From: a virus
Virus record (IMG/VR): IMGVR_UViG_3300031705_000002
Location: 30,958 to 94,957 of that record
Length of the DNA: 64,000 nt
Direction: 5' to 3' (one strand)
Position 1 is the stretch's first letter; the number at the start of each line of letters is the position of its first letter. The position numbers were made by a program, and so were the translations under genes. The notes below the pieces were generated by a model that did no database searches, was not told where the DNA came from, and saw only the letters and a program-made list of their open reading frames with translations. This document shows positions 8,058 through 27,527 of the stretch, one piece after another.

Positions 8058-9209
8058 CTACACATTAGTTTGTAAATATCCTTCGTATCCTCGTTGTTTG
8101 TTCCATATATGTGCCTGACCTGTTCTTTTAGCCTCATACCCCATCATCTTATGCCAATCATCATTCTTGCATATAGAAGGTATGAACCTAACTTTAATCC
8201 CTCTGTACTCATTTACCATTTCTTTGTGTACATGGCCACAGTGCGCTTCTCTTGAGGTCGTACGAGCAAACATAACAGGTTGCTCAGTAGCCATTATTAA
8301 TGGCATGTCAGCTGCCTTAACTTTGTCTCCGTGTGTAAACATAATCATGTTGATCCCGTACTCGTAGTACTTACGGTGCTCAAATGAATTATCTATTAAC
8401 ACTTGACCATCATTTGTGAAGTACGCATTTAAGTACTCACCGGCGTAGAACATACGTTCATAGTCGTGATTCCCCTGTATAACTACTACGTCAACTGGAG
8501 CATATTGAGATAGATACTGGATTGCTCTTACGATTAATGCGCAGTATCCTACAAATGTTTCTTTCCAATCTGCTGAATCAAATTGAGGTGTACCCTTAGT
8601 GGTAGCCCTACTTAACCCTTCAGAATTCATACCATCATTACCTATTGGTAAGAGTATTTTTTCAATATCTAAACCTTTAGATTTAATCATAAGGTCCTCA
8701 ATCACATTCATATACTCTTCCTCAGCTTGTTTTAAAGTTTGACCTGTATACTTTCCATAGTGAATATCAGGCAAAGATACCTCGTATGTAACGGGATCTT
8801 TTGCTTTGCTAGGTTCTACTCTTGCACGTATCGGGCTGTGGTTCTTAAGGATCTCAATGATTTCAGCCTTAGTGTTATCTATGACTTCATCTTCCCCCTT
8901 AACGACAACAGAGAATCTTTTTTCTCCTCCCATATTCTGCCAGAATTTAACTGACTGAATATCATTCTTATCTATATCGTTCTCTTGTACGAATCTATCA
9001 AAATCATTTAACTCGCTTTGGTCTATGTTTATGTTAGCGTTTGAGAGGACCATACTAGTAAAGCCTCCCATTGCTTCTATCCGCGCTTCCTTCAATGCTT
9101 CTTTACAAAGGTCTACATCGCATTCTAATTTTAAAGCTAATCTCCCTGAGCCCTCTTTAAGGTATCCAGGCTTGAGATGTAAAAACTCTTTAATTTCAGA
9201 CTTCGTCAT
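8058..9209 (-). CDS. Calcineurin-like metallophosphoesterase, copy 1
   Basis: Complete motif set: PDIHYG, GND, GNHD, HGD, GHVH. Confidence 0.88.
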   Translation of the reverse strand: MTKSEIKEFLHLKPGYLKEGSGRLALKLECDVDLCKEALKEARIEAMGGFTSMVLSNANINIDQSELNDFDRFVQENDIDKNDIQSVKFWQNMGGEKRFSVVVKGEDEVIDNTKAEIIEILKNHSPIRARVEPSKAKDPVTYEVSLPDIHYGKYTGQTLKQAEEEYMNVIEDLMIKSKGLDIEKILLPIGNDGMNSEGLSRATTKGTPQFDSADWKETFVGYCALIVRAIQYLSQYAPVDVVVIQGNHDYERMFYAGEYLNAYFTNDGQVLIDNSFEHRKYYEYGINMIMFTHGDKVKAADMPLIMATEQPVMFARTTSREAHCGHVHKEMVNEYRGIKVRFIPSICKNDDWHKMMGYEAKRTGQAHIWNKQRGYEGYLQTNV

Positions 9210-9592
9210 GATTTTTTAATTTTCTCTATGGATCGTCCAGCGAAGTACGCTCCATAAACGGTTATCAATAAGGTTTGGTAAATTGGTTTGTACGCATCAT
9301 CCATTACAAATTCCCCCACATTACCGTCTACAAAAGACATCAGTACGAGAATTATAGTTAAAAAAGAAAGTATTAAAGGTCGTATATTTTTTGGTAGCCA
9401 TGCATCAGATTTCATATCTGCTTCCCATCGCTTGCTAACTTGTTCTTGAGCTTGTGCCTCAGCTCTCATGAAGACTTCTTCAATCTTCTGCTTTGCTTCC
9501 AGCTTCTCTTCTTTAGAAGTAGTTAAATTATCAAGTACATCGCCGACTTGCTTAATTAATCCTCCACCTAGTAAGTCTAATATCTTATTCAT
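9206..9592 (-). CDS. Holin (GTA 3TM-holin-like), copy 1
   Basis: RWEADMKSDxWLxKNIRP, hydrophobic helices and the YFAGRSIEK C-terminus; ATGA overlap with the next gene. Confidence 0.75.
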   Translation of the reverse strand: MNKILDLLGGGLIKQVGDVLDNLTTSKEEKLEAKQKIEEVFMRAEAQAQEQVSKRWEADMKSDAWLPKNIRPLILSFLTIILVLMSFVDGNVGEFVMDDAYKPIYQTLLITVYGAYFAGRSIEKIKKS

Positions 9593-14275: not shown

Positions 14276-15454
14276 CTAGTCTAAATTTACTTGTAAGTGC
14301 CCTTCACACCCTTTACTTTTATTCCATATATACGCCTGAGCTTCTCTCATGGCCCCGTAACCCATCACCTTATGCCAAGTATCGTTAGGGCAAATACTAG
14401 GCAGGAACCTTACTTTAATCCCTCCTGTGTACGTGTTAACAATCTCTCTATGTTGATGTCCACAGTGTATCTCTCTATATTTACATTTAGCAAATTTTAC
14501 AGGTTGCTCTGTAGCCATTATTATAGGCATGACTGCAGGTTTTTCTTTGTCTCCGTGGGTAAACATTATAAGGTTTGTTCCGTACACATAGTACTTCCTA
14601 GACTCATAACTATTATCCACTTCTACTACTGTAGAATCTCTATACCAAGATTCAATAACTTCACCTATGTAGAACATACGTTCGAAGTCATGATTACCTT
14701 GTATTACTATAACGTCTACTGGTGCGAATGCTGCTAAATAATCTATAGCTAACACTAACAACTTCCAATATCCTCTAAAGGTCTCCTGCCATTCCTCAGA
14801 ATCATGCTGAGGAGTTCCCTTAGTTGTTGCTCGGCTGTACCCTTCAGAGTTTAAACCATCATTACCAATAGGAAGGATAAACCTTTCTATGTTAAGTCCA
14901 GTTGCTTTTCGATGTAACTCCTTAATAGTATTAAGGTATATTCGATTAGCTTTCTCTTGGGATACTCCCGTTATCTTACCATAATGAAAATCAGGTAAAG
15001 ATATTTCGTATGCTACTGGATCCCCTATCTTAAAATCATAGGCTGGATCTGGATGCTCGGGTACGTATTCCTGCATCTCTTTAAAGAACTCTTCTTTAAA
15101 CTCAATTAAGTTTGCTGCCTGCGGTTTAGTTACCACAGAGAACCTAGAGTCTCCCTTAACTGTTTGCCAGTGTTTAACCGACGTTACCTCTTTTTGATTT
15201 ATACCTTTTTCCTTCAGGTGTATATCTAGTTCGGGAAGGTACGCATTCTCAGCTGAACTGTAGTCTTTCGTGTCATTTTCATTAGAGTTTTTATCTGACT
15301 CCTGCCCTGACCACTTAAATCCTCCTGCGGAATTCCTAGCTCCTAATAATACTTTTCTTATACTACTGTCGTTTACTCCCGACTCTCGCATAGCTTCCAT
15401 GATTGTTGCGTACTCCCCTACAATATTGCCTTGGCTATCAATTTGTAAAATCAT
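14276..15454 (-). CDS. Metallophosphoesterase, copy 2, with N-terminal NUMOD1-type HTH
   Basis: PDFHYG, GND, GNHD, HGD, GHQH; the N-terminus ILQID..GNIVGEY.TI.EA....SI..VL.G.RNSAGGFKW is NUMOD1-like. Confidence 0.88.
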   Translation of the reverse strand: MILQIDSQGNIVGEYATIMEAMRESGVNDSSIRKVLLGARNSAGGFKWSGQESDKNSNENDTKDYSSAENAYLPELDIHLKEKGINQKEVTSVKHWQTVKGDSRFSVVTKPQAANLIEFKEEFFKEMQEYVPEHPDPAYDFKIGDPVAYEISLPDFHYGKITGVSQEKANRIYLNTIKELHRKATGLNIERFILPIGNDGLNSEGYSRATTKGTPQHDSEEWQETFRGYWKLLVLAIDYLAAFAPVDVIVIQGNHDFERMFYIGEVIESWYRDSTVVEVDNSYESRKYYVYGTNLIMFTHGDKEKPAVMPIIMATEQPVKFAKCKYREIHCGHQHREIVNTYTGGIKVRFLPSICPNDTWHKVMGYGAMREAQAYIWNKSKGCEGHLQVNLD

Positions 15455-15837
15455 TTCTTTTTTATTTTTTCAATACTCCTCCCTGCAAAATAAGCTCCGT
15501 ACACGGTGATTAGTAAAGTTTGGTAGATTGGTTTATAAGCTGCGTCCATTACGAATCCTCCTAGATTACCATCTAAGAAAGACAGTACGACTAGGATTAA
15601 AGTTAAAAAAGCGAGAGCCAAAGGTCTTATGTTCTTGGATAACCAGTTGTCAGACTTCATGTCTGCCTCCCATCTCCTAGAAACTTGTTCCTGGGCATTC
15701 GCTTCAGCTTGCATTAGCACTTCCTCTATCTTTTGACGGGCAGCTAACTTCTCTTCTTTAGAGGTGGTTAGATTATCAAGTACATCTCCTACTTGCTTAA
15801 TCACTCCACCTCCTAATAGGTCTAGTAGTTTACTCAT
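15451..15837 (-). CDS. Holin (GTA 3TM-holin-like), copy 2
   Basis: 128 aa; 107/128 identical to 9206-9592 by hand count; coupled to the endolysin by an ATGA overlap. Confidence 0.78.
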   Translation of the reverse strand: MSKLLDLLGGGVIKQVGDVLDNLTTSKEEKLAARQKIEEVLMQAEANAQEQVSRRWEADMKSDNWLSKNIRPLALAFLTLILVVLSFLDGNLGGFVMDAAYKPIYQTLLITVYGAYFAGRSIEKIKKK

Positions 15838-16292
15838 GATAAGTCTGCATATTTATATTTAGTGTCATTGTCTTCATCCTTGTAGGCTTCCAACACTTGC
15901 TTTCTATTACCTTCCTTAATCAACGATATGTGTATCCAAGCGAAGTCGAATTCGTTAATCATTTGGTCGAACTCAATACCACTTTCTAATACCCAGTCGT
16001 AGATTTCTTTGTTCGATATTTTACCATCGTTCCAAAATTGCAAATCCAAAGCCTCACCTTTACAATGCTGGCTTTTGTTACTTCCACCGATAGCCCTGTT
16101 GAGGGCTGGGTTGCGATAACCACTACTGATCCTGATAGGACCAAGAGCTTCTCGCATAGGTTGAACAAGGTTAGTAATAATCCTTTGAATACTTCGTAGG
16201 TGTTCTTTGTTGGGGCCATTATCTATCCCCAACCGTTTAGCTGCATTGCTTCGAGTAATCTCAGACAATACAAAATTATCGCTTAATCTCAT
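15834..16292 (-). CDS. Endolysin, peptidase M15A (LAS-type Zn peptidase)
   Basis: SSGYR, SQHxxGEALD and WIHIS motifs; adjacent to the holin. Confidence 0.9.
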   Translation of the reverse strand: MRLSDNFVLSEITRSNAAKRLGIDNGPNKEHLRSIQRIITNLVQPMREALGPIRISSGYRNPALNRAIGGSNKSQHCKGEALDLQFWNDGKISNKEIYDWVLESGIEFDQMINEFDFAWIHISLIKEGNRKQVLEAYKDEDNDTKYKYADLS

Positions 16293-16785
16293 CTATGTAC
16301 ACCTTTCTAGTTAATATTCCGTTACTTGCTATATAGAAACCTCTTACAGGTTTTACTTCTCTGCCTAAAATATCGTAATAGTGAGTTGGGATGAAGGGTG
16401 TATTATCAACCTCTTCTATTCCTATAGTCAAGCATCCTACATCTACTAGTTGCTCTTTGAATTCTTGCGGCCAAGTACCAAGCGAATCGATCCAATCTAC
16501 ATCAGATAAGAAGTCATACTCTGTTTGACCTACATATAAGTATGCACCATTCCATCCGTCTCCGTAAGAGTCCATCATGTTTATCTGGTAATACTCTGGT
16601 AATACAACTGCACCTAAATAAGGAGCTATACCTTCTAATAATATACCACCATTACAGGTTAGAATCTGCCAAGTTATCTCATCAGGGTATTCTCCTGTTG
16701 TACACTCTACAAATACTTGTTGCTGCTGTGCTGAAGATGTTAACGACATCAATGTCACGAACACTAAAAATAATAGTTTTTTCAT
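16276..16785 (-). CDS. Secreted protein with DSYGDGW domain and T9SS-CTD-like C-terminus
   Basis: Signal peptide ...SSA|Q; YPDEITW...MMDSYGDGWNGA; C-terminus GIEE...YYDILGREV...GFYI...RKVYI. Confidence 0.7.
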   Translation of the reverse strand: MKKLLFLVFVTLMSLTSSAQQQQVFVECTTGEYPDEITWQILTCNGGILLEGIAPYLGAVVLPEYYQINMMDSYGDGWNGAYLYVGQTEYDFLSDVDWIDSLGTWPQEFKEQLVDVGCLTIGIEEVDNTPFIPTHYYDILGREVKPVRGFYIASNGILTRKVYIDEIKR

Positions 16786-17153
16786 TATTGGAATTTGTTA
16801 AATGTTATTTCGTCTATAACAGACTGTACTTCTTTTTTGGTAGCATTCAACTCCATCATAATGTTGGGGTTAAATCTGTTCTGCTCCACACCATTATCGA
16901 AGACAATAATGGTGGGAACTGAGGTTACTTTGTATTTACTCTGAAGGTCGGAGCTCTTGATAATACACACTCTATACGAGGAACAATCTTTTAGAGCCTC
17001 TAGGAATTCAACTTCGTTTCCTTGATTCCATTCTACCCAGAATTCTACGACTACTATACCTTTAGCTGTCTTGGGTCCAAATGAGCTAGAAGTGACAAAC
17101 TCTTGAGCTACAATATTTGTAGTAAGGAGTAGTAATAATAATAAGTATTTCAT
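16785..17153 (-). CDS. Secreted thioredoxin-fold protein lacking CxxC
   Basis: Signal peptide ...VA|Q; VVVEFWVEWNQGN in place of FWAxWCxxC; YKVTSVPTIIVFDNGVE cis-Pro motif. Confidence 0.75.
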   Translation of the reverse strand: MKYLLLLLLLTTNIVAQEFVTSSSFGPKTAKGIVVVEFWVEWNQGNEVEFLEALKDCSSYRVCIIKSSDLQSKYKVTSVPTIIVFDNGVEQNRFNPNIMMELNATKKEVQSVIDEITFNKFQ

Positions 17154-17452
17154 ATTGCTATTCGTATTGTAACAACTCCTAGCACCGATCCCACTGCGTC
17201 TGCAGCTAAATCACTCCACTCAGGTTGTCCGTGTTTAATGTCATAAATTTCTTTAATACTTCCAGCTAAGACGGCTGCGCATAATCCTATCAGTATCGCT
17301 TTCTTCTTGTCGTTGGTTTTATTGTAAACTACAGCACTAATAGTAGAACTAATTACATAACTCCCACCAAGATGTAGAAGCTTGTCCTGTGGTACTAGTT
17401 GTGCACACACATTACTTGTAATCAATAACGCTATCAAAAGTAGTTTACTCAT
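17150..17452 (-). CDS. YfiM/DUF2279-like membrane protein
   Basis: DKxxH, KExxD and WxDLxADxxG motifs; signal peptide ...CA|Q. Confidence 0.7.
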   Translation of the reverse strand: MSKLLLIALLITSNVCAQLVPQDKLLHLGGSYVISSTISAVVYNKTNDKKKAILIGLCAAVLAGSIKEIYDIKHGQPEWSDLAADAVGSVLGVVTIRIAI

Positions 17453-17723
17453 AAAGCTTTTGTTTAATAAGCTTCATGTCTTCTTTCATCTCAGAAACAT
17501 CTTCCTGAGTATTCATGATAGTCTGACGTATCAGCTTATCTTTCATATCGAACTCCATTCGAGTAATAACAGGGTCTATCGGTTCAGGTAACTCCCTAGC
17601 TTCTGCTATATCGTTCTGTAGTGTAAACCACATCCCCACCAATGTTGCTATTAAGAATGCTATACCTCCTAAAGTCTTGAGACTTATCTGTACTGCACTG
17701 TCTTCACTTAATTCTTTAGCCAT
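17445..17723 (-). CDS. Single-TM protein with C-terminal coiled coil
   Basis: TM segment LGGIAFLIATLVGMWF, then a heptad-rich tail. Confidence 0.65.
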   Translation of the reverse strand: MAKELSEDSAVQISLKTLGGIAFLIATLVGMWFTLQNDIAEARELPEPIDPVITRMEFDMKDKLIRQTIMNTQEDVSEMKEDMKLIKQKLYE

Positions 17724-17726
17724 CTA

Positions 17727-18755
17727 TTAAAATATTAAATAATTTATTCCCGTTTGCATATTATAAGATCTTATATCCCAGTACTTAAGGTGTCTTCCTT
17801 CTACGAAGATACTAAAATGTTTGTTAAATTTAACACCAAACACCACACCAATATCCCATTCCGTCGTTACCCCAGGGTATGAGTAGGAATATTCACTCAA
17901 ACCTTTATGTGCAGGATACACAGAACCCCATGCATGCATCCAAGACTTGCTTGAATAATGATAATAATCGGCTCCTACAACCATAGAAACTTCTTGTTGA
18001 AGACCCAAATCATTAAGTTGCTGATTGTTGTATTCGTTTACAGCATCCCCAAAATGATACGAGTAAAACTCAGGGTCTGACTCAGCGATAACTTCCCCTT
18101 CATGAGACCACACATGATTGTCATCATCAGTGTATCCAAACTCATTAGCTAGCTGCCACCAGTGTTTGTTCTCAGGCTTAGAGAACCATTCCTCTATTGG
18201 AGAGTATCCGTACACAGGGTGAGAACGATGGGCTACGCCTAAAGTAAGGTCGATATTACCAAAACTTTTACGTAGCCTAACCTCGCCCAGAGTATATTTA
18301 AGATTAATTAATCCGTCATCCACATACGAAGCTTTCGATGTTAGGTGATCAGATATGTATCTAACCTTATATTCTTGCTGTTTAAATTTCATCCCTCTAT
18401 TACGAATGGATGAGTACTTAAACAAGTACTCTAAACCAGGTGCGTTAGATATTGTAGCGTAATCGCTACTCTCGTCTTCTGAACCCGTGTAAAAATTACC
18501 CTGTTTTACCTGGTAATCAAAACGTGCTATCTTTCTAAGCCCTATTGTTATGTTATAATTAGGAGCGCTGACCTCAGTCATCTCAACAAGCTGTCCAGAG
18601 CCTGCAATCCCATCAACTATAAAAGCTTGATTCTCTGAGAAGGGTGCTGCCGTAGACATACTTGCATAGAATGTAGCAAACCTAAATAGGGAGAACCCCA
18701 TCTGAGCATTAGCAACCGTGCTAACAAACAGTAATATGTATAATAACTTCTTCAT
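17727..18755 (-). CDS. Putative outer-membrane beta-barrel protein
   Basis: Signal peptide ...ANA|Q; amphipathic aromatic strands; terminal TGINYLIF resembling a beta-signal. Confidence 0.6.
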   Translation of the reverse strand: MKKLLYILLFVSTVANAQMGFSLFRFATFYASMSTAAPFSENQAFIVDGIAGSGQLVEMTEVSAPNYNITIGLRKIARFDYQVKQGNFYTGSEDESSDYATISNAPGLEYLFKYSSIRNRGMKFKQQEYKVRYISDHLTSKASYVDDGLINLKYTLGEVRLRKSFGNIDLTLGVAHRSHPVYGYSPIEEWFSKPENKHWWQLANEFGYTDDDNHVWSHEGEVIAESDPEFYSYHFGDAVNEYNNQQLNDLGLQQEVSMVVGADYYHYSSKSWMHAWGSVYPAHKGLSEYSYSYPGVTTEWDIGVVFGVKFNKHFSIFVEGRHLKYWDIRSYNMQTGINYLIF

Positions 18756-18964
18756 TTCTTAGCAAATTTCTCTACCCCTGAAATACCAAAGCATCCTAAG
18801 ACAACCCAAACAAAGGCTTCGTAAACAAATTCGTTTACTACTAGTTCAGCTCCAAGCCACCCCGTAACAAGATCAGCTACCATGATAAGACACATTATAG
18901 CAAATGCTATAAAACCTACAATAGCTTTCTCGTTCCAATTATTATCGTTCTTAAATATTTCCAT
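18752..18964 (-). CDS. Small two-TM membrane protein (holin-like)
   Basis: 70 aa; two hydrophobic helices and a basic C-terminus (EKFAKK). Confidence 0.6.
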   Translation of the reverse strand: MEIFKNDNNWNEKAIVGFIAFAIMCLIMVADLVTGWLGAELVVNEFVYEAFVWVVLGCFGISGVEKFAKK

Positions 18965-19658: not shown

Positions 19659-22600
19659 TTAACATGTTTTACAATTACAAAGATCAGCTAACTTCTCTTT
19701 GTACATTTCTATTTTAATTTGATTACCTTCTTTTAAGGACGCTACATACGCCTGGTATATGGCATATACTTTAAGAGCCTTCAATTGACTCTCTGTGTCT
19801 TCCTTTAAAAGATTAACAGCTGTCATAGAGTTCTCTATACAGTTATGTAACTCCGTTGAAACACAAGACCCATCATCATAAAGAGCATCAATATCATAAT
19901 TGAAAGACCCTATAGTAGTACATCCAGGTTTAATTAGATTTAAAGTGAATGGCTCAAAGTAAGTTGAGTTGTACACAGTCTTAGTTTGTAGTGTATTTCC
20001 ATACTCATCCTTTAGTACATACACAACCATATTATCAGATAAAACCTTAACCCCTATAGGAGTGGATTCTGCTAAAGTAAAGCCCTCACTTACAGAGGCT
20101 CCCTCCGTAAGCGCCCCCGAAAGATCCACTAACTTCTCTCCTGTAGCTACATTGTAGATAACAAAAGCAGTGTCAGAGTAATCCGATACTGGAGACTCCT
20201 CAGTTATTACCTCTACAGTAAAACTAGTGAATTCTCCTTCATCCTCCTTAACATCTCTAGAACACCCTAGGGTATTTATAGCTAATGGAGAGCACCCTAT
20301 AGAGCAGCTTCCTGGTCCAGTTTTTAAAACTATACTACCATCTGCAGTTGTAGACGATCCATGATCTAATACATGTAAAACATTCTCCCCTTTTCTTAAA
20401 GTTAAAGTTAAATCAACCCAAGAATTTAAATAGTTAAACCCTATAGGCATAAACCCTACACAATCAGGAGAGTTTAAAATAGTAGTTATCCCTGAAGCAG
20501 TAACAGTGTTAAGGATAGTCCCTGATATAGTATACAGTATGTAGTCTATATTAGCTTCCGCCCCTTCAGGTTCTACAGTAATAGTGTAAACACCTGATAA
20601 ATCCTCAGTACCTTCAACGTCTTCAAGCTCTATTAGGGTTTGACATAACGACATATCAGGAGTCCAGTAAGTAGGATCCGAAGTTGCCTCAGGGTTAAAC
20701 TCCAAGTAGTCAGTGTTAGGACAGTATGATGTAGGCACTATGTACTCACATACACTGTTATCAGATATTTCACAATCCCCAAGTATCTCTGAAAAGGAAA
20801 CAGCTACTGTATCAGTACACACTGATAAATATCCCCCACTAGTTATACAAGGATCTACACAGGCTCCACACACCCCTGCATCAGGAATGTATAAAGTGCT
20901 TGTAGGAGCAGTAGTAAGATTCCCTACACTAGTAACAATACTTACTACGCCTCCCGTAGACAGTGTTTGAGCTTGACTTTGACTTATAGCTCCTGAGGTT
21001 AGTAAGAACATTACGTTATTACTTTCCGTACCCCAATCCTCATACTGACAAACTCCTGTACATACATATACCGTAGTCACATTAGAGTCTAAGTCTGGGA
21101 AATAAGGAGCAAACGAGATGCCCTGAGTAAGTTCCGCTATAGTTCCGTCAGGATCTAAAGCCATTAAAACTCTATATACATGGTAATTAGTTTCATAAAA
21201 GTTTTGAGGTGTAGCGGTTGTTTCGTCCTGATACACAGCTAAGTGCACAAACCCCTCTATAGTTCCGTGCTCTATAACGTCTGTGTCTACATCTAGTTTA
21301 GTTACAGATATTATATTAGAACCAATATAAGAACCAAATACATCTTCAATATAAACATTATCTATTAGTTCATCCGTCACTCGGAAGTAGAAGGAAACCG
21401 CCTTACCTATAACTGTTGATACAGTGTTTGAGTCTATAGAGCTTACACTTCCTAACACCCCCGTAATAGTATTAACGGAAGGATTAGTTATAGAGTATGA
21501 GAACGTAACCTCCGCATTTTCATCAGCTCCTGCTAAAGTAAGGGTAGGGTTAAGTCTAGTTATATTTTGACATCTTTTAGTTATATACGGATTATCCCTC
21601 GTATAAACTACCTCCCCAGGTATAGGTAGGAGTTCAGATATTACATCGTTAAGTCCTACCTCTAAATCATAATAACCTATAGTATAAGTATCTTCCCCGT
21701 TAACATTAGAGTAGGTACCTGTATGATGAGTAATTATTGGATTACCACTAAAGTATACAGCGTCTACAGAAGAATCTAGAACAGTAAAGTCCTCAGGGTT
21801 TGTGATACCGAAGTATTCACAATTACCCCCCTCCACTAAAGCGGTAGGGTCATGATTGTACGCCTGTGGGTCTGTACATCCCGTACAAGTACTGTTGTTC
21901 CCGTCACACACTCCACACAGATCTACTGTAGAACCTTGACAATCACATACATCGCCAGGAGTAGTAGTGCCTATTACAAACGTAGTCGCATTGTTACACT
22001 CACATTGAGGCACAACCTCATTAGGGCCATTACAAATGAGACAAGCATCAAGCGTTGAAGTACCTCCCTGAACGCCTGCACAGTCCGTATCCGTCTCTGT
22101 TCCTAAAAGAACACAAGCACCAACAAATTCGTCATACACATACCCTGAGCAACACTCGCCGAAAGCAAGTGGGGCTAAACTGGCATAACTCGAGCACCCA
22201 CCTGGAGCACAGTATTGGTTGCCAGCTAAAGTGTATATAGTAGTAGCTTCATCATAAACTGCTCCTACCACAAATTCTGTTGTAGACACCATGCAGTCAT
22301 CAAATGTAACAGTGTTGTCACAGGAATTAGAGATCCCTCCAGGGGAGTATTCTACGGTATATGAGGGAGCTGCAGCTCCGTCAACGCACCCACAGTTAGG
22401 TGAAGCGAAAGGGATATTCCCCTCACAGTCGCAGTAACCTTCAGGTATATCAGCACACGCACATTCATATTCTGTAGCCTCAACTGTAGGGTCGAAGCAT
22501 CCGCACTCTCCCATCTCGAAAGGTGTGGAAGTAAGAACGCCCTCCACGCCATGCGGAATACATTCATTACACTCGTCACTAAAACCTTCGCAGCCATCCA

Positions 22601-25600
22601 CCCCTAAAGACTCAGTTAAAGGTATCCACATCGGAGTCCCTGCATAATTTAATTCTTGCAGGGTAGGGTCTCCAGGGCATATCGCAGAGCTTGAATATGA
22701 TGCATGATACCCGTCGCCGTCTATGTCTAACACATATAGAGACGTCGTATCACTACATATTATCGCCCCTTCAGCATCGTAGCACTGTTGGTTGAAGTCC
22801 GCTATATTACTCTCTCCAGCGCAATCGCAATACTGTCCATGTACCTCTGTAGAGTTTTGTCCCGCACAGTTACATAAAGAATTGTCTATAAAGTTTCCAC
22901 CACAATCACAGTTAACATCCAGTTGGCCTGTACCGCCATCACAGTCACATACACCGTATGCCTGTAAGTATGTTATGGTATTTTGATCTAAATTCCCCGC
23001 TAAGTGGTCTGTGTACTGATCACAATTGCAGTACCCGTTACTATCAGAAATAACAGTGTCAGGGTTGTTAGTACAATCCGTACAATTAGATATACCTGCC
23101 CCTAAATAAGAGGGAGTCAAACCTCCTGCACCATCACAGTTGCAAGCATTCGTAGGATTTACACAAAGACTCTCTAAGTGTTCAGAAGGATAAAGGTCGT
23201 CACCAGAGTTTAGAAGTAAACCATCCTCCACAAAAGATCCTGAAGTTCCGTATCCGTTACAGTTAGTAGTATCTGTTAATAAATCTGAGCATCCATAGAA
23301 GGTGCATGCAGATAAATCTTCTACACAATCAGTGACGCCTTGGCACCCTGCTGCAGAAGTGTTATTTCCTAGGTTTGTCCCCTGAGGACATTCATAGCAT
23401 GCGGTTGTTTGGGTTCCTGTGCCTTCTAGGTATACAGCGCCAGACCCTGCACCAGTTACATCGCCATTGGTATGGCAAACCCCACACTGATCCACGTGAG
23501 TAACTCTGTAATCTCCCATACATACATCACAGGCATCCCCAAAGGTGCCTTCATCAAACGGGGGAGTCGTACAGCTACCATCATTGACGTTAGCTAGGGG
23601 ATTAAAATTACAACACCAGTCATACGTACATCCAAATATAGGAAGAATGTAACCTAGATCCTCTCCTATATCAGTTACAATTCCCCCAAACTCTCCTTTA
23701 GCGGGTAGTAATGGGTAGGCTCCAAGGGAATCCCCCTTATAGAGATCTATACCAAACGCAATGCGAACCGCGTCAAAGTCTTCAGGGTTAACTAATCTAG
23801 ATATTCTAGAGTGGAAGTTAGTACCTATATATATATGCCCATTAGGCAACTTTAAAATATTGTTTATAAGTCCTGCAGCGTTTACATCCTCTACATCAAG
23901 AAGATTCCGTTTTATGTCGTTCGCCGAAATAACAGTACCAGCAGGTAGGTGGGTAAGGGGTGAAAAACCAACCTGCCCTCGTTTATATTTTCTTATACCT
24001 CGAATATCCCCCGCTCCATCCGCAACAGTAACATATACGATGTCTACTGCCAGTTCCATAGAAGCTATAGAACCATATACTGAATCAAATAGCTCTGATA
24101 AAGACATAGTTATTACAGTCGTCGACCCACTAGTTGGAAGTGTAGCCAAAGAGGGAGCGCCGTTGTTGCTTGTATAACTAAGTGCATACAAGGCTTCAGA
24201 TACTTTTAGTATCCCCCCATCAAACGTACCTGACGTACCTGATAAATCTGTAGACAAATGCTCTGTTAAAGTAGATGTAGAAATATCGTTAACAATAGGA
24301 AACGATTGTAGTTTCATTGTAACACCTATATGGGTATAAACATATATAACAGTTCTGTTACCTAGACCTGTATTTATAACACAAGTATCTACTATTACTT
24401 CTGATTCAGGTATAGTTAATATCTCTCCCTCCAAAACTACTGTACCTAAACACATACCCCAAGGAGCTGTGAAGGAGGTACATCCTATACCAAAAGTCAA
24501 CTTATAACTTTTAAATACATTGCCATCTAAGGTTATTATTTTATAGTGAAAATCATCTAATCCTGTGTAAGTTTCCACAGAAATAACCTCTCCCTCTATA
24601 ACGCTTAGTGTGTCTCCTATTCTATTCAGCACAGTGTATGCCTCCTCGCCGTTTATTTTCGCTACAACTGCAACTAAAACTCCGTTAGATGACACTATCC
24701 TAGCTCCCTCTACGGATAAGTCAATATTTTTATTATTTATATAATATTCAAAAGAAGAAACGTCAGCAGGTAAAGATAAATCTTTAAGATTTACTGCTTC
24801 TCTCCCTACATTTGTAGCTACATACATATATTCCTCACTATCCCCTATAGGTAAAAAAGCTCCTGGAGGTGTAGGGGTTATTATATTTAATTGCCTGTGG
24901 TTGTTCGGGTCTCTCCATTCGAGGGAGTGCGTTAGCAAAAATTCTTCATAAGAATTAAAACTTACAGCTACTCCTAGACCTGTTTCTAAGCTAATTTTTG
25001 CAGTATCTATGACTAGCGAATTGTTGTGACCCTCTAATGGGAGAGGCAACTCCTTGATAAGTATGTCAGGCAAATTAATCAAAGTGTCTACAGATGTCTG
25101 AAGGTCAGGGGTAGGTATAACTATATACTCTGTACTACCTTTGGCGTACACATGTATAGCTCCATCCTTACTTAATGAAATATCTGTTATAGTACTAGAT
25201 AAAGGATTGCTTATAGATACGATACTAGACCTTATTTCTCCGTGTATTTCATTCTCAAAGAATTCCTCGGAATTAAGTCTGGTTAAATTGTATACTGTTA
25301 TATACTGATCTCCGCTACTAGCGTCTTCCGATATAGTATATAGAAAATTATCATGAGGAGATAGAACTGCTTTTTTAAATAAAACGCCATAATCTCCTTC
25401 AGTAAGATTGTGATCTGTGTTTGGTGCTGCAGCGTACATATGTATTTCTAATCCGTCCACTTCGGTGGGGGCTAGTAACGCTCCACTTATATTATCTACA
25501 TACGTAAGTATAAACCCAAACTTCCCGCCTATAACTACCAGTTTTTTACCTATCCCTAAGTCTGTTGCACCAGAGTTAAGTAGTGTCGTTACCTGGGATG

Positions 25601-27527
25601 ACACTAGATGCCCTGAGCGTAATCTACTAGATATAATAAAAGGAATATCATTAAGTTTAGCACTATCGTAATCTCCGCTCCCATAATCCACCCCCGTGTA
25701 AACCTCAGTTTCTAAGTCTAAGATAGCATCTAAACCGTCTCCATCCGTTATACCTAGTGTACTAAAATCTAAATATCCCTCCTCGTCTGTAAGGAATTTT
25801 ACTCCAGGTATGTTATACATCCTAGATAAACTTTTTGAAAGACCTCTAGAATCAAGTCCGTCGGACTCGAAGAAACTGTACCCTTTGAAGGTTATTGTAT
25901 AGGCTTTAGCGTCCCCCATACCATCAGTCATCAGTCTTGCAGACATTCCAGTTCCCCCTCCCACTATGTCACCACCCTGCTCTACATATTGGTTTCTAGC
26001 ACTTCTAATATTTACTACATCACTCTGCTGTATACTAACATCTAACAACTCTAAATCTCTATATACCGTATAACTGTCTTGTACAGGAGATAATGCCAAT
26101 GTGAGTGTTCTAGGAAGAGTCATCCCTATAAATGAGGTACCAGCATCCTGTGTACGCGATGAGAGTATTGAGGCAACCCTACCATGAAAAGCTTTAGATT
26201 TACCTACAGAATTCTCTGCATAGTATATAGTACTTTCGTCTTCAAAAAGACCTGAACTCTCTATAATACCCCCTACAAACTCTCCTCCTATAACAATACC
26301 TGGAGTATCTATATGGAAAGTATTTACAATCTCCCCTAATTCTACGTCAGGGTTGTCGCAGTCTATCCCTGGGTAATCCGCAGGGGTTCTATCTAAAATA
26401 GTCTTAACAGATAGGTACGCGCCAGAGGTAAAAAATATATTGGTATATTCCTCCCCTACATCTGTAACACTTCGAACAGAGAGAAACTTCTCCTTAGCCA
26501 CAAACTCTGAGGGCTCTAAATCTGTGTGAAGACCTGTACCATGGTAAAAGTTCGCCATAGAGGTTCCAAGCCTATCTGAAATGGATGCCACCCATTTACC
26601 ATCTAAAATACCAATAAATATATAGTTTAAAACTATAGAGTTTTCTTCTAATATTGAAGAGGATGTTACGTAGTCTAGGGTATCACTCTTAACGGGGGAA
26701 ACATAAGAAGCCCCACTCATCAAATCAACATAATTAAACATATCCTCAAACGCCCCTAAGAGTATATAGTTGTGGGTAGGTACCACAAACCTTGAAGCAT
26801 CTATATCATGGAAGGTTTTTGTTTTAACAACTTTGGCGCAAGATCCATCATCTACGTTAGCATTAGAATTAAAGTTAGAAGATAAAGAATTAGTACACCC
26901 ATAAACCCAAGGGTTAGTGCTATTTGTACCTCCGTATAGTTTAAAAATATGTGACTTTAAAATCTTATATCTATTCAGCACATAAGTAGTAATATCTCCT
27001 TCGGGAGATGTTCTGATGCCGTGTTTACTATGAAACACGTTCCCGTGGTATGAAACGTTAACTACTGTATCTCCCTTCTGATCTCCTAACCCTAAAAGGT
27101 TACCTATGTAATGTAAGGTAGCGGGCATCATGTTTACCCTCTTAGGTAATAGTGTAGTACCCCAAGAAGTGGAATTACTGTATGTGATTGAAGTCTTAGT
27201 AACTTTTGTATCAGTAATTGCAGAAGAAAAGTCAAACAAAATGTCTGCCTCCTTTTTGCTTACCTCCTTAAACTTAACAAGTAGATTCCCGTCCAGGTGC
27301 ATATTATTACTATACAAGTCTGTCAATAGGGACTCCCATTGAAATAATGCATTATGTATATCTATGACAATACCTCCTATATCACTAGGAACTTTAGACG
27401 AATCCTGGAAATAGTTTGTATCTATATGGTAACCCAACTCTAATATATCAGAACTTCCCGCTTTAACATTGTTAATAGCAGTAAGTAACGGTTGGAATAT
27501 CTTTAATGAGTTTAATTTATAAGCCAT
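19659..27527 (-). CDS. Giant Cys-rich protein (2622 aa) with a degenerate N-terminal matrixin-like domain; probable virion appendage
   Basis: Single open frame; GCTx(5)N(Y/F)..A..DDGSC and CDCxG / DxCGVC repeats; no signal peptide; lies in the structural operon. Confidence 0.8.
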   Translation of the reverse strand: MAYKLNSLKIFQPLLTAINNVKAGSSDILELGYHIDTNYFQDSSKVPSDIGGIVIDIHNALFQWESLLTDLYSNNMHLDGNLLVKFKEVSKKEADILFDFSSAITDTKVTKTSITYSNSTSWGTTLLPKRVNMMPATLHYIGNLLGLGDQKGDTVVNVSYHGNVFHSKHGIRTSPEGDITTYVLNRYKILKSHIFKLYGGTNSTNPWVYGCTNSLSSNFNSNANVDDGSCAKVVKTKTFHDIDASRFVVPTHNYILLGAFEDMFNYVDLMSGASYVSPVKSDTLDYVTSSSILEENSIVLNYIFIGILDGKWVASISDRLGTSMANFYHGTGLHTDLEPSEFVAKEKFLSVRSVTDVGEEYTNIFFTSGAYLSVKTILDRTPADYPGIDCDNPDVELGEIVNTFHIDTPGIVIGGEFVGGIIESSGLFEDESTIYYAENSVGKSKAFHGRVASILSSRTQDAGTSFIGMTLPRTLTLALSPVQDSYTVYRDLELLDVSIQQSDVVNIRSARNQYVEQGGDIVGGGTGMSARLMTDGMGDAKAYTITFKGYSFFESDGLDSRGLSKSLSRMYNIPGVKFLTDEEGYLDFSTLGITDGDGLDAILDLETEVYTGVDYGSGDYDSAKLNDIPFIISSRLRSGHLVSSQVTTLLNSGATDLGIGKKLVVIGGKFGFILTYVDNISGALLAPTEVDGLEIHMYAAAPNTDHNLTEGDYGVLFKKAVLSPHDNFLYTISEDASSGDQYITVYNLTRLNSEEFFENEIHGEIRSSIVSISNPLSSTITDISLSKDGAIHVYAKGSTEYIVIPTPDLQTSVDTLINLPDILIKELPLPLEGHNNSLVIDTAKISLETGLGVAVSFNSYEEFLLTHSLEWRDPNNHRQLNIITPTPPGAFLPIGDSEEYMYVATNVGREAVNLKDLSLPADVSSFEYYINNKNIDLSVEGARIVSSNGVLVAVVAKINGEEAYTVLNRIGDTLSVIEGEVISVETYTGLDDFHYKIITLDGNVFKSYKLTFGIGCTSFTAPWGMCLGTVVLEGEILTIPESEVIVDTCVINTGLGNRTVIYVYTHIGVTMKLQSFPIVNDISTSTLTEHLSTDLSGTSGTFDGGILKVSEALYALSYTSNNGAPSLATLPTSGSTTVITMSLSELFDSVYGSIASMELAVDIVYVTVADGAGDIRGIRKYKRGQVGFSPLTHLPAGTVISANDIKRNLLDVEDVNAAGLINNILKLPNGHIYIGTNFHSRISRLVNPEDFDAVRIAFGIDLYKGDSLGAYPLLPAKGEFGGIVTDIGEDLGYILPIFGCTYDWCCNFNPLANVNDGSCTTPPFDEGTFGDACDVCMGDYRVTHVDQCGVCHTNGDVTGAGSGAVYLEGTGTQTTACYECPQGTNLGNNTSAAGCQGVTDCVEDLSACTFYGCSDLLTDTTNCNGYGTSGSFVEDGLLLNSGDDLYPSEHLESLCVNPTNACNCDGAGGLTPSYLGAGISNCTDCTNNPDTVISDSNGYCNCDQYTDHLAGNLDQNTITYLQAYGVCDCDGGTGQLDVNCDCGGNFIDNSLCNCAGQNSTEVHGQYCDCAGESNIADFNQQCYDAEGAIICSDTTSLYVLDIDGDGYHASYSSSAICPGDPTLQELNYAGTPMWIPLTESLGVDGCEGFSDECNECIPHGVEGVLTSTPFEMGECGCFDPTVEATEYECACADIPEGYCDCEGNIPFASPNCGCVDGAAAPSYTVEYSPGGISNSCDNTVTFDDCMVSTTEFVVGAVYDEATTIYTLAGNQYCAPGGCSSYASLAPLAFGECCSGYVYDEFVGACVLLGTETDTDCAGVQGGTSTLDACLICNGPNEVVPQCECNNATTFVIGTTTPGDVCDCQGSTVDLCGVCDGNNSTCTGCTDPQAYNHDPTALVEGGNCEYFGITNPEDFTVLDSSVDAVYFSGNPIITHHTGTYSNVNGEDTYTIGYYDLEVGLNDVISELLPIPGEVVYTRDNPYITKRCQNITRLNPTLTLAGADENAEVTFSYSITNPSVNTITGVLGSVSSIDSNTVSTVIGKAVSFYFRVTDELIDNVYIEDVFGSYIGSNIISVTKLDVDTDVIEHGTIEGFVHLAVYQDETTATPQNFYETNYHVYRVLMALDPDGTIAELTQGISFAPYFPDLDSNVTTVYVCTGVCQYEDWGTESNNVMFLLTSGAISQSQAQTLSTGGVVSIVTSVGNLTTAPTSTLYIPDAGVCGACVDPCITSGGYLSVCTDTVAVSFSEILGDCEISDNSVCEYIVPTSYCPNTDYLEFNPEATSDPTYWTPDMSLCQTLIELEDVEGTEDLSGVYTITVEPEGAEANIDYILYTISGTILNTVTASGITTILNSPDCVGFMPIGFNYLNSWVDLTLTLRKGENVLHVLDHGSSTTADGSIVLKTGPGSCSIGCSPLAINTLGCSRDVKEDEGEFTSFTVEVITEESPVSDYSDTAFVIYNVATGEKLVDLSGALTEGASVSEGFTLAESTPIGVKVLSDNMVVYVLKDEYGNTLQTKTVYNSTYFEPFTLNLIKPGCTTIGSFNYDIDALYDDGSCVSTELHNCIENSMTAVNLLKEDTESQLKALKVYAIYQAYVASLKEGNQIKIEMYKEKLADLCNCKTC

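Follow-up and report, generated by a model that had tools for sequence, protein, structure and literature searches.

Here we describe a run of genes for membrane and exported proteins that abuts the lysis genes of the virus in IMG/VR record IMGVR_UViG_3300031705_000002, and in particular three of these genes, referred to below as B, C, and E, that are conserved together as a unit. The stretch of DNA analyzed (the window; 64,000 nucleotides) comprises bases 30958–94957 of the 94,957-bp record, which CheckV rates as complete, and positions given below are those of the window unless a locus handle precedes them. On the minus strand, nine genes form a tight array that extends from gene A through a holin gene and beyond, with junctions that are either overlaps of 1–17 nucleotides or gaps of no more than 3 nucleotides. 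Gene A (18752–18964) encodes 70 amino acids (aa) and is followed by B (17727–18755; 342 aa), C (17445–17723; 92 aa, separated from B by 3 nucleotides), D (17150–17452; 100 aa), E (16785–17153; 122 aa), F (16276–16785; 169 aa), an endolysin gene (15834–16292), and a holin gene (15451–15837); a candidate gene of 77 codons (15986–16219, same strand) lies within the endolysin gene, in its +1 frame. All of the genes lie where a preliminary description of this DNA, made from the sequence alone, had placed them, overlapping or abutting on the minus strand, and the run is packed together with the endolysin and holin genes, in keeping with the proposal that it is wired into the lysis operon. Scans of the minus strand revealed no terminator-like site within the run, and promoter-type motifs, including the Bacteroidota motif TAnnTTTG, did not occur above chance; the co-transcription that we infer for the run therefore follows from gene packing alone.

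The portal, large terminase (TerL), and major head proteins of this phage match crAss-type PHROGs, and its TerL is 38.5% identical to the counterpart in Cellulophaga phage phi14:2, with gut crAss-like phages and Flavobacterium phages next in order. On the basis of these similarities the source is assigned, from its genes, to the marine crAss-like phages, and its host is most likely of the Flavobacteriia type. Four proteins encoded by the run, B, D, E, and F, carry signal peptides with glutamine at the +1 position, just as had been claimed for them. The junctions (a slash marks the cleavage point) are drawn from the set ANA/Q, VCA/Q, IVA/Q, and SSA/Q, with ANA/Q belonging to B, and these were the only signal-peptide proteins found in the whole 95-kb genome. 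When unique homologues were scored for a hydrophobic h-region followed by [ASGCT]Q, this arrangement was kept in 86 of 91 homologues of B, 80 of 81 of E, and all of those of F (26) and D (7), as compared with 11% of background open reading frames (ORFs). Junctions in which a small residue precedes glutamine fit the Q-rule of the Bacteroidetes (PMC5837995), for which Porphyromonas phages provide phage precedents (PMC10367356). The families of the trio show phages obeying a host-specific rule for secretion.

The largest of the three core proteins, B, has the features of an exported outer-membrane β-barrel, namely a signal peptide, an even-stranded barrel in its structural model, and a C-terminal aromatic β-signal. 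In particular, AlphaFold2 (AF2) modeled B with 14 strands at a predicted local distance difference test (pLDDT) score of 76, and the structural matches obtained with VIA were Tsx (Z 11.7), VhGalP (Z 11.3), KdgM (Z 10.6), and OMPLA (Z 10.2), with NanC matched by Foldseek at 5e-5. Modeled similarity of this order to solved outer-membrane barrels (Z 10–11.7) upholds the label of putative β-barrel that B had been given. The scores are tied among unrelated small barrels (Z 9.5–11.7), enzymes and autotransporters included, and B has no Pfam match, the Pfam outer-membrane protein (OMP) families being searched at E up to 0.1. The protein contains no cysteine and ends in GINYLIF, of which NYLIF is invariant among homologues. 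A conserved helical insert of ~70 aa (residues 180–252) would, judging from strand parity in the model, face outward as part of an extracellular loop, and the most conserved stretch of the protein (residues 72–111, RKIARFDYQVK...), which was modeled at low confidence, would by the same reasoning face the periplasm. An OMPLA-like catalytic function was considered for B and rejected, as H176-x-S178, an HxS-like motif, is not conserved and homologues have T, A, M, or Q in place of the serine. Membership of the PorP/SprF, PorV, or Lom groups was likewise rejected, there being no Pfam match and, for PorV, a Z score of only 7.8 that lies under those of many unrelated barrels.

The second core protein, C, is a single-pass inner-membrane protein in which one transmembrane (TM) segment at residues ~17–36 is followed by an ELPEP linker and then, at the C-terminus, by a helix of 40 residues with 3–4 hydrophobic spacing, an architecture that agrees with its earlier description as a TM segment plus a coiled coil. 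C is the most conserved protein of the set (mean column identity of 66% over 24 diverse homologues), with invariant residues that flank the membrane on both sides and with no cysteine in any of the 24 homologues; its N-terminus is presumed to be cytoplasmic. No relative of C was found in the PDB or among GenBank phages (50,697 records), and the look-alikes of both B and C in the Atlas were confined to their own viral clusters. Kinship with TonB or TolA was dismissed, since the likeness is limited to the outline of a TM segment followed by a proline linker and is not accompanied by any profile or PDB match. Some loci encode C-like paralogues of 75–108 aa (L030:7838–8164, L091:8614–8940, and L025:7304–7531) in which the N-terminal half and the TM segment are as in C and the coiled coil is different and longer; the genes for these proteins directly precede the endolysin gene (L030 and L091) or C itself.

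The third core protein, E, is an exported thioredoxin-fold protein that has lost its redox center. E matches PF00085 at 24.2 bits (cut-off 23.5), and the profile of the E family matches thioredoxins in the PDB with E values of 5e-14 to 7e-12, such that E can be regarded as a true member of the fold to which it had been assigned, albeit one in which asparagine occupies both active-site cysteine positions. Specifically, the WCGPC active site reads W-N-Q-G-N, the two asparagines (N43 and N46) are invariant in the family, the cis-proline is retained, and CxxC is absent from all 60 aligned family sequences. Among members of the thioredoxin family (PF00085), which includes inactive proteins, E is thus linked by sequence homology and by its cis-proline; it differs from them in its invariant asparagines, in its Q-rule signal peptide, in being found only in phages, and in adjoining B and C. 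The frequent presence of ribonucleotide reductase genes beside the trio led us to consider E as a reductant for that enzyme, a role that was rejected because E is exported and has no cysteine pair.

We found that B, C, and E are inherited together across phages that otherwise share little. Among 39 IMG/VR loci that encode close relatives of B (58–92% identity), the order B, C, E, F is kept in nearly all, D is present in five, and A is variable. A distant subfamily, whose B proteins are ~32% identical to that of the window, was found at 221 loci, of which 80 were fetched; searches of these 80 with hidden Markov models built from the close set detected C in 79 and E in 77; A was found in 48 of them and D in 4, and F was not detected in any. 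After dereplication at 90% identity of B, 61 loci remained, in which C occurs 60 times, B and E 59 times each, A 32 times, F 21 times, and D 7 times, and the order of B, C, and E stays constant while the surroundings change, across lineages with unrelated flanks. The conserved unit is therefore the trio B-C-E, often accompanied by A, with D and F as lineage-specific accessories, rather than the six-gene unit that had been proposed, although the conserved neighborhood that this proposal presupposed does exist for the trio (59–60 of the 61 loci), whose linkage is effectively obligate.

The trio is present in at least three phage lineages, with genomes of 95, 100–115, and 164–168 kb, and the TerL proteins of the 100–168-kb genomes are either 25–26% identical to that of the window or undetectable. 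A profile-based search through 1.84 billion representatives placed the B family in 347 clusters (50% identity); its members are exclusively viral, as are all of its Atlas neighbors. For one distant relative of B, P0296, no viral locus was found. A search of 185,579 species genomes for the trio gave only three hits, one in a contig of a Flavobacteriales metagenome-assembled genome (MAG) and two in contigs of a MAG labeled "Woesearchaeota". The latter two (L122 and L123, from "Candidatus Woesearchaeota" RS366, PBPJ01000041.1 and PBPJ01000028.1) encode B in both cases and C in L122, carry Q-rule signal peptides of the Bacteroidota type, and most likely represent mis-binned phage. The cassette DNA, B, C, and a distant B had no relatives in the 50,697 GenBank phage records, and hence there is no cultured model for the trio. 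For A, B, C, and F, no family exists in Pfam, PHROG, NCBIfam, or PADLOC, and the literature that we searched contained no description of such a module. The composition of the trio is without known parallel, in line with the first impression that no system of this kind had been described.

The lysis genes that lie beside the trio are well supported in the window. The endolysin, which has neither a signal sequence nor a signal-arrest-release segment, is a Peptidase_M15_3 protein (PF08291, 62.8 bits, cut-off 23.2; phrog_894, 4.8e-32), and the holin is of the GTA_holin_3TM family (PF11351, 29.7 bits, cut-off 24.8; phrog_3427, 3.4e-29), so that both of the labels originally attached to these genes can be retained. 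The embedded ORF of 77 codons has a conserved ATG, one TM-like segment, and a basic C-terminus. Of 25 distinct endolysin homologues, 20 keep its frame open, each at P ≤ 0.0025 in synonymous-codon shuffles, and the five most distant ones are null-like; suppression at synonymous sites over the ORF is weak and non-significant (0.361 vs 0.408, P 0.086). Judging from these features, the ORF may be a holin-type gene, for either a holin or an antiholin. A second copy of the 3TM holin gene (128 aa) lies at 9206–9592 on the minus strand, with an N-terminus nearly identical to that of the copy at 15451–15837, and each copy is followed by a gene for a phrog_704 metallophosphoesterase (8058–9209 and 14276–15454).

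Proximity to lysis genes is a recurrent property of the trio. Fifty-four loci were informative, in that each extends for at least 1.5 kb after E, and in these an endolysin-family gene is found nearby in 35, a holin-family gene in 29, and one or the other in 40. The endolysins concerned are M15_3 proteins, a 202-aa family (phrog_3000, function unknown, with a weaker match to the endolysin family phrog_33083), proteins that combine PG_binding_1 and Amidase_2 domains, and a DUF5675 family (3 loci) that was counted as endolysin on the basis of position and of the impression given by its sequence, its lytic role being assumed and no function being given by Pfam; the holins are of the 3TM type and a holin_4_1-like type. 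In some loci (L026–L033) the holin gene directly precedes B instead of following the endolysin gene. The lysis genes are non-orthologous between lineages, and the adjacency of the trio has survived both their replacement and rearrangement. This persistence is the strongest argument for a role of the trio at lysis.

The remaining genes of the run, A, D, and F, would be lineage-specific additions to the trio. A, a partner of the trio that is found either before B or after E, has hydrophobic segments at residues 15–33 and 41–59, which is in agreement with its being called a two-TM protein, and a charged C-terminus; its topology is like that of a class II holin. D, an exported membrane protein, matches DUF2279 at 26.2 bits (cut-off 28.6), the YfiM model NF008028 at 32.8 bits (cut-off 117), and phrog_26616, annotated as "lipoprotein", at 3e-10. 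It is probably a remote DUF2279/YfiM relative, with the DUF2279 and YfiM matches falling under the curated cut-offs. F, which occurs only in the window's own lineage, is an exported, cysteine-containing protein that AF2 modeled (pLDDT 81) as a small β-sandwich with a DSYGDGWNG motif and a short C-terminal β tail of three strands, and fold searches gave weak, generic β-sandwich matches (Z ≤ 5.3). F had been described as a protein of the T9SS type (T9SS, type IX secretion system), a label that finds no support. Neither F nor its 26 homologues matched the sorting C-terminal domain (CTD) model Por_Secre_tail (PF18962) at E up to 1, F did not match the NCBIfam T9SS sorting-domain models at E up to 1, the whole phage genome gave no match to PF18962 even at E 10, and alignment of the F-family profile with a genuine CTD by hhalign gave a probability of 1.6% over 15 columns. 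The sole CTD-like trait of F is a YYDILGREV...GFYI motif. Taken together, the observations first made on the run hold for the arrangement of its genes, for the signal peptides, and for most of the protein labels, with the YfiM likeness of D remaining sub-threshold and the T9SS assignment of F falling away.

There is, nevertheless, a T9SS cargo elsewhere that is related to F. The Flavobacteriales MAG contig NZWA01000061.1 (L121) encodes a 994-aa signal-peptide protein (L121:3015–5996) with a true CTD (PF18962, 50.2 bits), and the N-terminus of this protein is homologous to the N-terminal, GDGW-containing domain of F (hhalign 89%, E 2e-6). In addition to the F-like domain it carries many YGCTD..FNYDP.AN.DDGSC repeats, and its gene lies directly upstream of B-C-E, after which come genes for an endolysin (Amidase_2) and for a membrane protein of 399 aa. 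A phage-encoded T9SS type-A cargo has been reported from a "Cryophage" (Bellas et al. 2020, PMC7468147), and the Por_Secre_tail cargo that adjoins B-C-E in L121 resembles it; F, with no detectable CTD, and the genome of the window, with no PF18962 match, do not. A 2622-aa protein of the window (19659–27527) has a ...YGCT...DDGSC motif near its N-terminus and no signal peptide or CTD. Other companions of the trio recur in other lineages. A membrane protein of ~400 aa, with an N-terminus that reads MFEKIKERIFPF...SALSVSASAAFYS... and an acidic C-terminus, is encoded at L051:9261–10373 and at 18 other loci, follows the endolysin and holin genes in the 164-kb lineage and in L121, and has no Pfam or PHROG family. 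In the 100–115-kb lineage the trio follows a gene for a protein of ~1,900 aa. The genome of the window itself encodes, outside the window and on the minus strand (G000:C1:3405–8363), a 1652-aa protein starting MATCPNKSHPDW..., 40 kb from the trio, whose N-terminus resembles those of the ~1,900-aa proteins of L104 and L119 (lineage ii), which directly precede the trio there.

The presence of B and C in a lysis cassette raises the matter of spanins. A search for ORFs of at least 25 aa with a lipobox, in any frame of the coding strand, found none in the 94,957-bp genome, and an ORF resembling a u-spanin (a lipoprotein signal plus a C-terminal TM domain, of the T1 gp11 type) was likewise absent from the genome. 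The genome that contains the window therefore encodes no canonical o-spanin or u-spanin, which extends to the whole 95 kb the remark that no lipoprotein o-spanin was evident in the window. Kongari et al. (2018; PMC6139136) report that ~13% of phages are spanin-less, Croceibacter and Bacteroides phages among them, and acknowledge that their criteria ignore the possibility that "an OMP could act as an o-spanin". The two-component spanins (λ Rz/Rz1 and T4 PseT.3/PseT.2) are products of adjacent lysis-cassette genes that pair an inner-membrane coiled coil with an outer-membrane partner, a pattern shared by C and B. Indeed, C has the topology of an i-spanin, with an N-terminal TM domain and a periplasmic helical coiled coil if its N-terminus is cytoplasmic as presumed, and the clustering with holin and endolysin genes that typifies spanins is evident from the 40 of 54 loci described above. 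However, B is a 342-aa β-barrel with a signal peptidase I-type signal (ANA/Q) and no lipobox or cysteine, as opposed to the small lipoprotein of spanins; C is a short protein of unusual conservation and, like B, lacks cysteine; E is an obligatory third, periplasmic component with no counterpart in the spanins; and the trio is not always beside an endolysin gene. Because it lacks both a lipobox o-spanin and cysteines for disulfides, we do not file the trio as a spanin, though it possibly works like one.

These findings raise the possibility, which we put forward tentatively and at a little below an even chance, that the trio is an envelope-spanning lysis accessory that executes the outer-membrane step. 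According to this model, the three proteins would be made through the Sec, signal peptidase I, and β-barrel assembly machinery (BAM) pathways of the host; B would be inserted by BAM into the outer membrane, forming a barrel of 14 strands there, C would reside in the inner membrane and project its short proline linker and coiled-coil helix into the periplasm, and E, as a redox-dead thioredoxin fold, would serve as a periplasmic adaptor or chaperone. The trio would then execute or license the last step of lysis, in which the outer membrane is disrupted once the holin and endolysin have done their work, with B standing in for the o-spanin lipoprotein and C for the i-spanin. Such a physical complex across the envelope, the lytic function, and the time at which the genes would be expressed are all predictions from gene content and sequence. 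The more specific proposal that B-C-E is a new machinery for outer-membrane disruption, an "OMP-type spanin" in which a BAM-inserted barrel replaces the lipoprotein o-spanin, is a more doubtful one, to which we accord about a third of our belief. What had been envisaged at the outset was a trans-envelope module of inner-membrane, periplasmic, outer-membrane, and surface parts; the packing with the lysis genes, the conserved neighborhood, and the coverage of the first three compartments by exported and membrane proteins are borne out, whereas the surface part, which depended on T9SS, lacks statistical support, and the unit is not one of six genes.

A number of observations weigh against a role in opening the outer membrane. 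Intermolecular disulfides are described as near-universal in two-component spanins (PMC6139136), and B and C are free of cysteine. The periplasmic part of C comprises only ~55 residues, and C is conserved far above the norm for spanins. No lysis gene is found near the trio in 14 of the 54 informative loci, and in the 100–115-kb lineage the only detectable endolysin (Amidase_2) is encoded ~40 kb from it. At L046 and L101, two overlapping genes after the endolysin gene (L046:8887–9258 and 9140–9571) specify what looks like a spanin pair that coexists with the trio: one product, of 123 aa, combines a TM segment with a coiled coil, and the other, of 143 aa, has a coiled coil in addition to a Q-rule signal peptide and a TM segment at its C-terminus. 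In 10 of the 61 dereplicated loci a lipoprotein gene (136–242 aa; lipobox LGC or SSC) lies exactly between B and C (L043:7206–7778, L119:7178–7738, L075:7218–7931, and seven other loci). To our knowledge, barrel proteins have no known role in membrane fusion; an outward-facing insert, if B has one as modeled, would suit a function at the surface better than fusion; and the obligatory presence of a dead thioredoxin is left unexplained.

Several of the same observations would be accommodated if the trio, in concert with A and F and at times a surface lipoprotein, altered the envelope so as to block other phages or progeny, that is, if it served superinfection exclusion or surface remodeling in the manner of T4 Imm (inner membrane) and Sp (periplasm), T5 Llp, or the OMP morons of λ. 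We consider this unlikely, though a serious contender. In its favor, the conserved 70-aa helical insert of B is placed by strand parity in an extracellular loop, a true T9SS surface cargo is encoded directly upstream of B in related loci such as L121, the trio and the endolysin gene are 40 kb apart in one lineage, and, going by what is generally known of T4, A shares a two-TM topology with Imm and E shares its location with Sp. The lipoproteins encoded between B and C point in the same direction, in that seven of the 10 form a family of 182–193 aa whose mature part starts C-(E/T/D)-K-(E/D/N)-E, which we take to resemble the surface-export signal of Bacteroidota. Exclusion genes are typically expressed early, however, and the trio occupies the late, or lysis, end of operons, where it overlaps the endolysin gene; moreover, no PADLOC or PHROG exclusion family was matched, and C and E are so highly conserved between unrelated phages as would not be expected of receptor-specific exclusion. 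Temperate coliphages provide an analogy in the OMPs Lom/Ail of λ, Lc of PA-2, and the NmpC porins, each of which, like B, is a barrel that the host assembles in its outer membrane from a phage gene. These are familiar as single lysogenic-conversion genes with bacterial homologues, whereas B is found only in phages, is part of a three-gene unit in lytic-type genomes, and belongs to no Pfam OMP family.

A role in the timing of lysis, through lysis inhibition (LIN) or as an antiholin, appears less probable still. Here C would be a holin like T of T4, or a partner of one, E would bind the helix of C as RI does T, and B would sense events at the outer membrane. The T4 holin T combines a single TM segment with a domain in the periplasm, where the small protein RI is also located, so the topologies of C and E match those known from T4; further, the trio adjoins holins of two families, with a holin gene directly before B in L026–L033, and strong conservation would fit a regulatory interface between proteins. 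Against this, neither sequences nor profiles reveal any similarity to T, RI, or RIII, the cassette already holds a Pfam-level holin, a candidate embedded holin, and A, and known LIN systems have no counterpart of the outer-membrane barrel. More generally, the small inner-membrane and periplasmic envelope proteins of T4 (Imm, Sp, and the RI/T pair, as commonly described) are resembled in topology by A (Imm), C (T), and E (RI and Sp), yet they lack sequence or profile similarity to these proteins, and T4 has neither an outer-membrane component nor a fixed trio.

It is very unlikely that B is a substrate-specific porin of the Tsx or KdgM kind for nucleosides or oligosaccharides, with C and E as accessories. 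The top fold matches of B are indeed the Tsx nucleoside channel and KdgM/NanC-type porins, and ribonucleotide reductase genes adjoin the trio in many loci, but the tied scores of the small barrels extend to enzymes and autotransporters, B has no sequence similarity to the Tsx, KdgM, or NanC porins, a porin would need neither an inner-membrane coiled coil nor a dead thioredoxin, and placement at the late, or lysis, end is too late for the supply of nucleotides. That the genes have no joint function and are independent exported "morons" hitchhiking in a permissive spot, as the gain and loss of A, D, and F between lineages might suggest, is highly improbable given the strongly contrary synteny of B, C, and E, which are co-inherited in order in 59–60 of 61 loci with unrelated flanks.

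The means by which phages without spanins breach the outer membrane of Gram-negative hosts have yet to be settled, and the trio, a set of three genes spanning ~1.7 kb, is a concrete candidate for them. The trio is phage-only, strongly conserved, and abundant, being present on hundreds of IMG/VR contigs from at least three lineages and in the lysis cassettes of marine Bacteroidota phages. If B-C-E does act as an OMP-type spanin, such a spanin would be widespread in ocean Bacteroidota phages that lack canonical ones. Whatever their role, B, C, and E, three unannotated families, together constitute one of the sets of exported proteins most often encoded by flavobacterial phages of the ocean.

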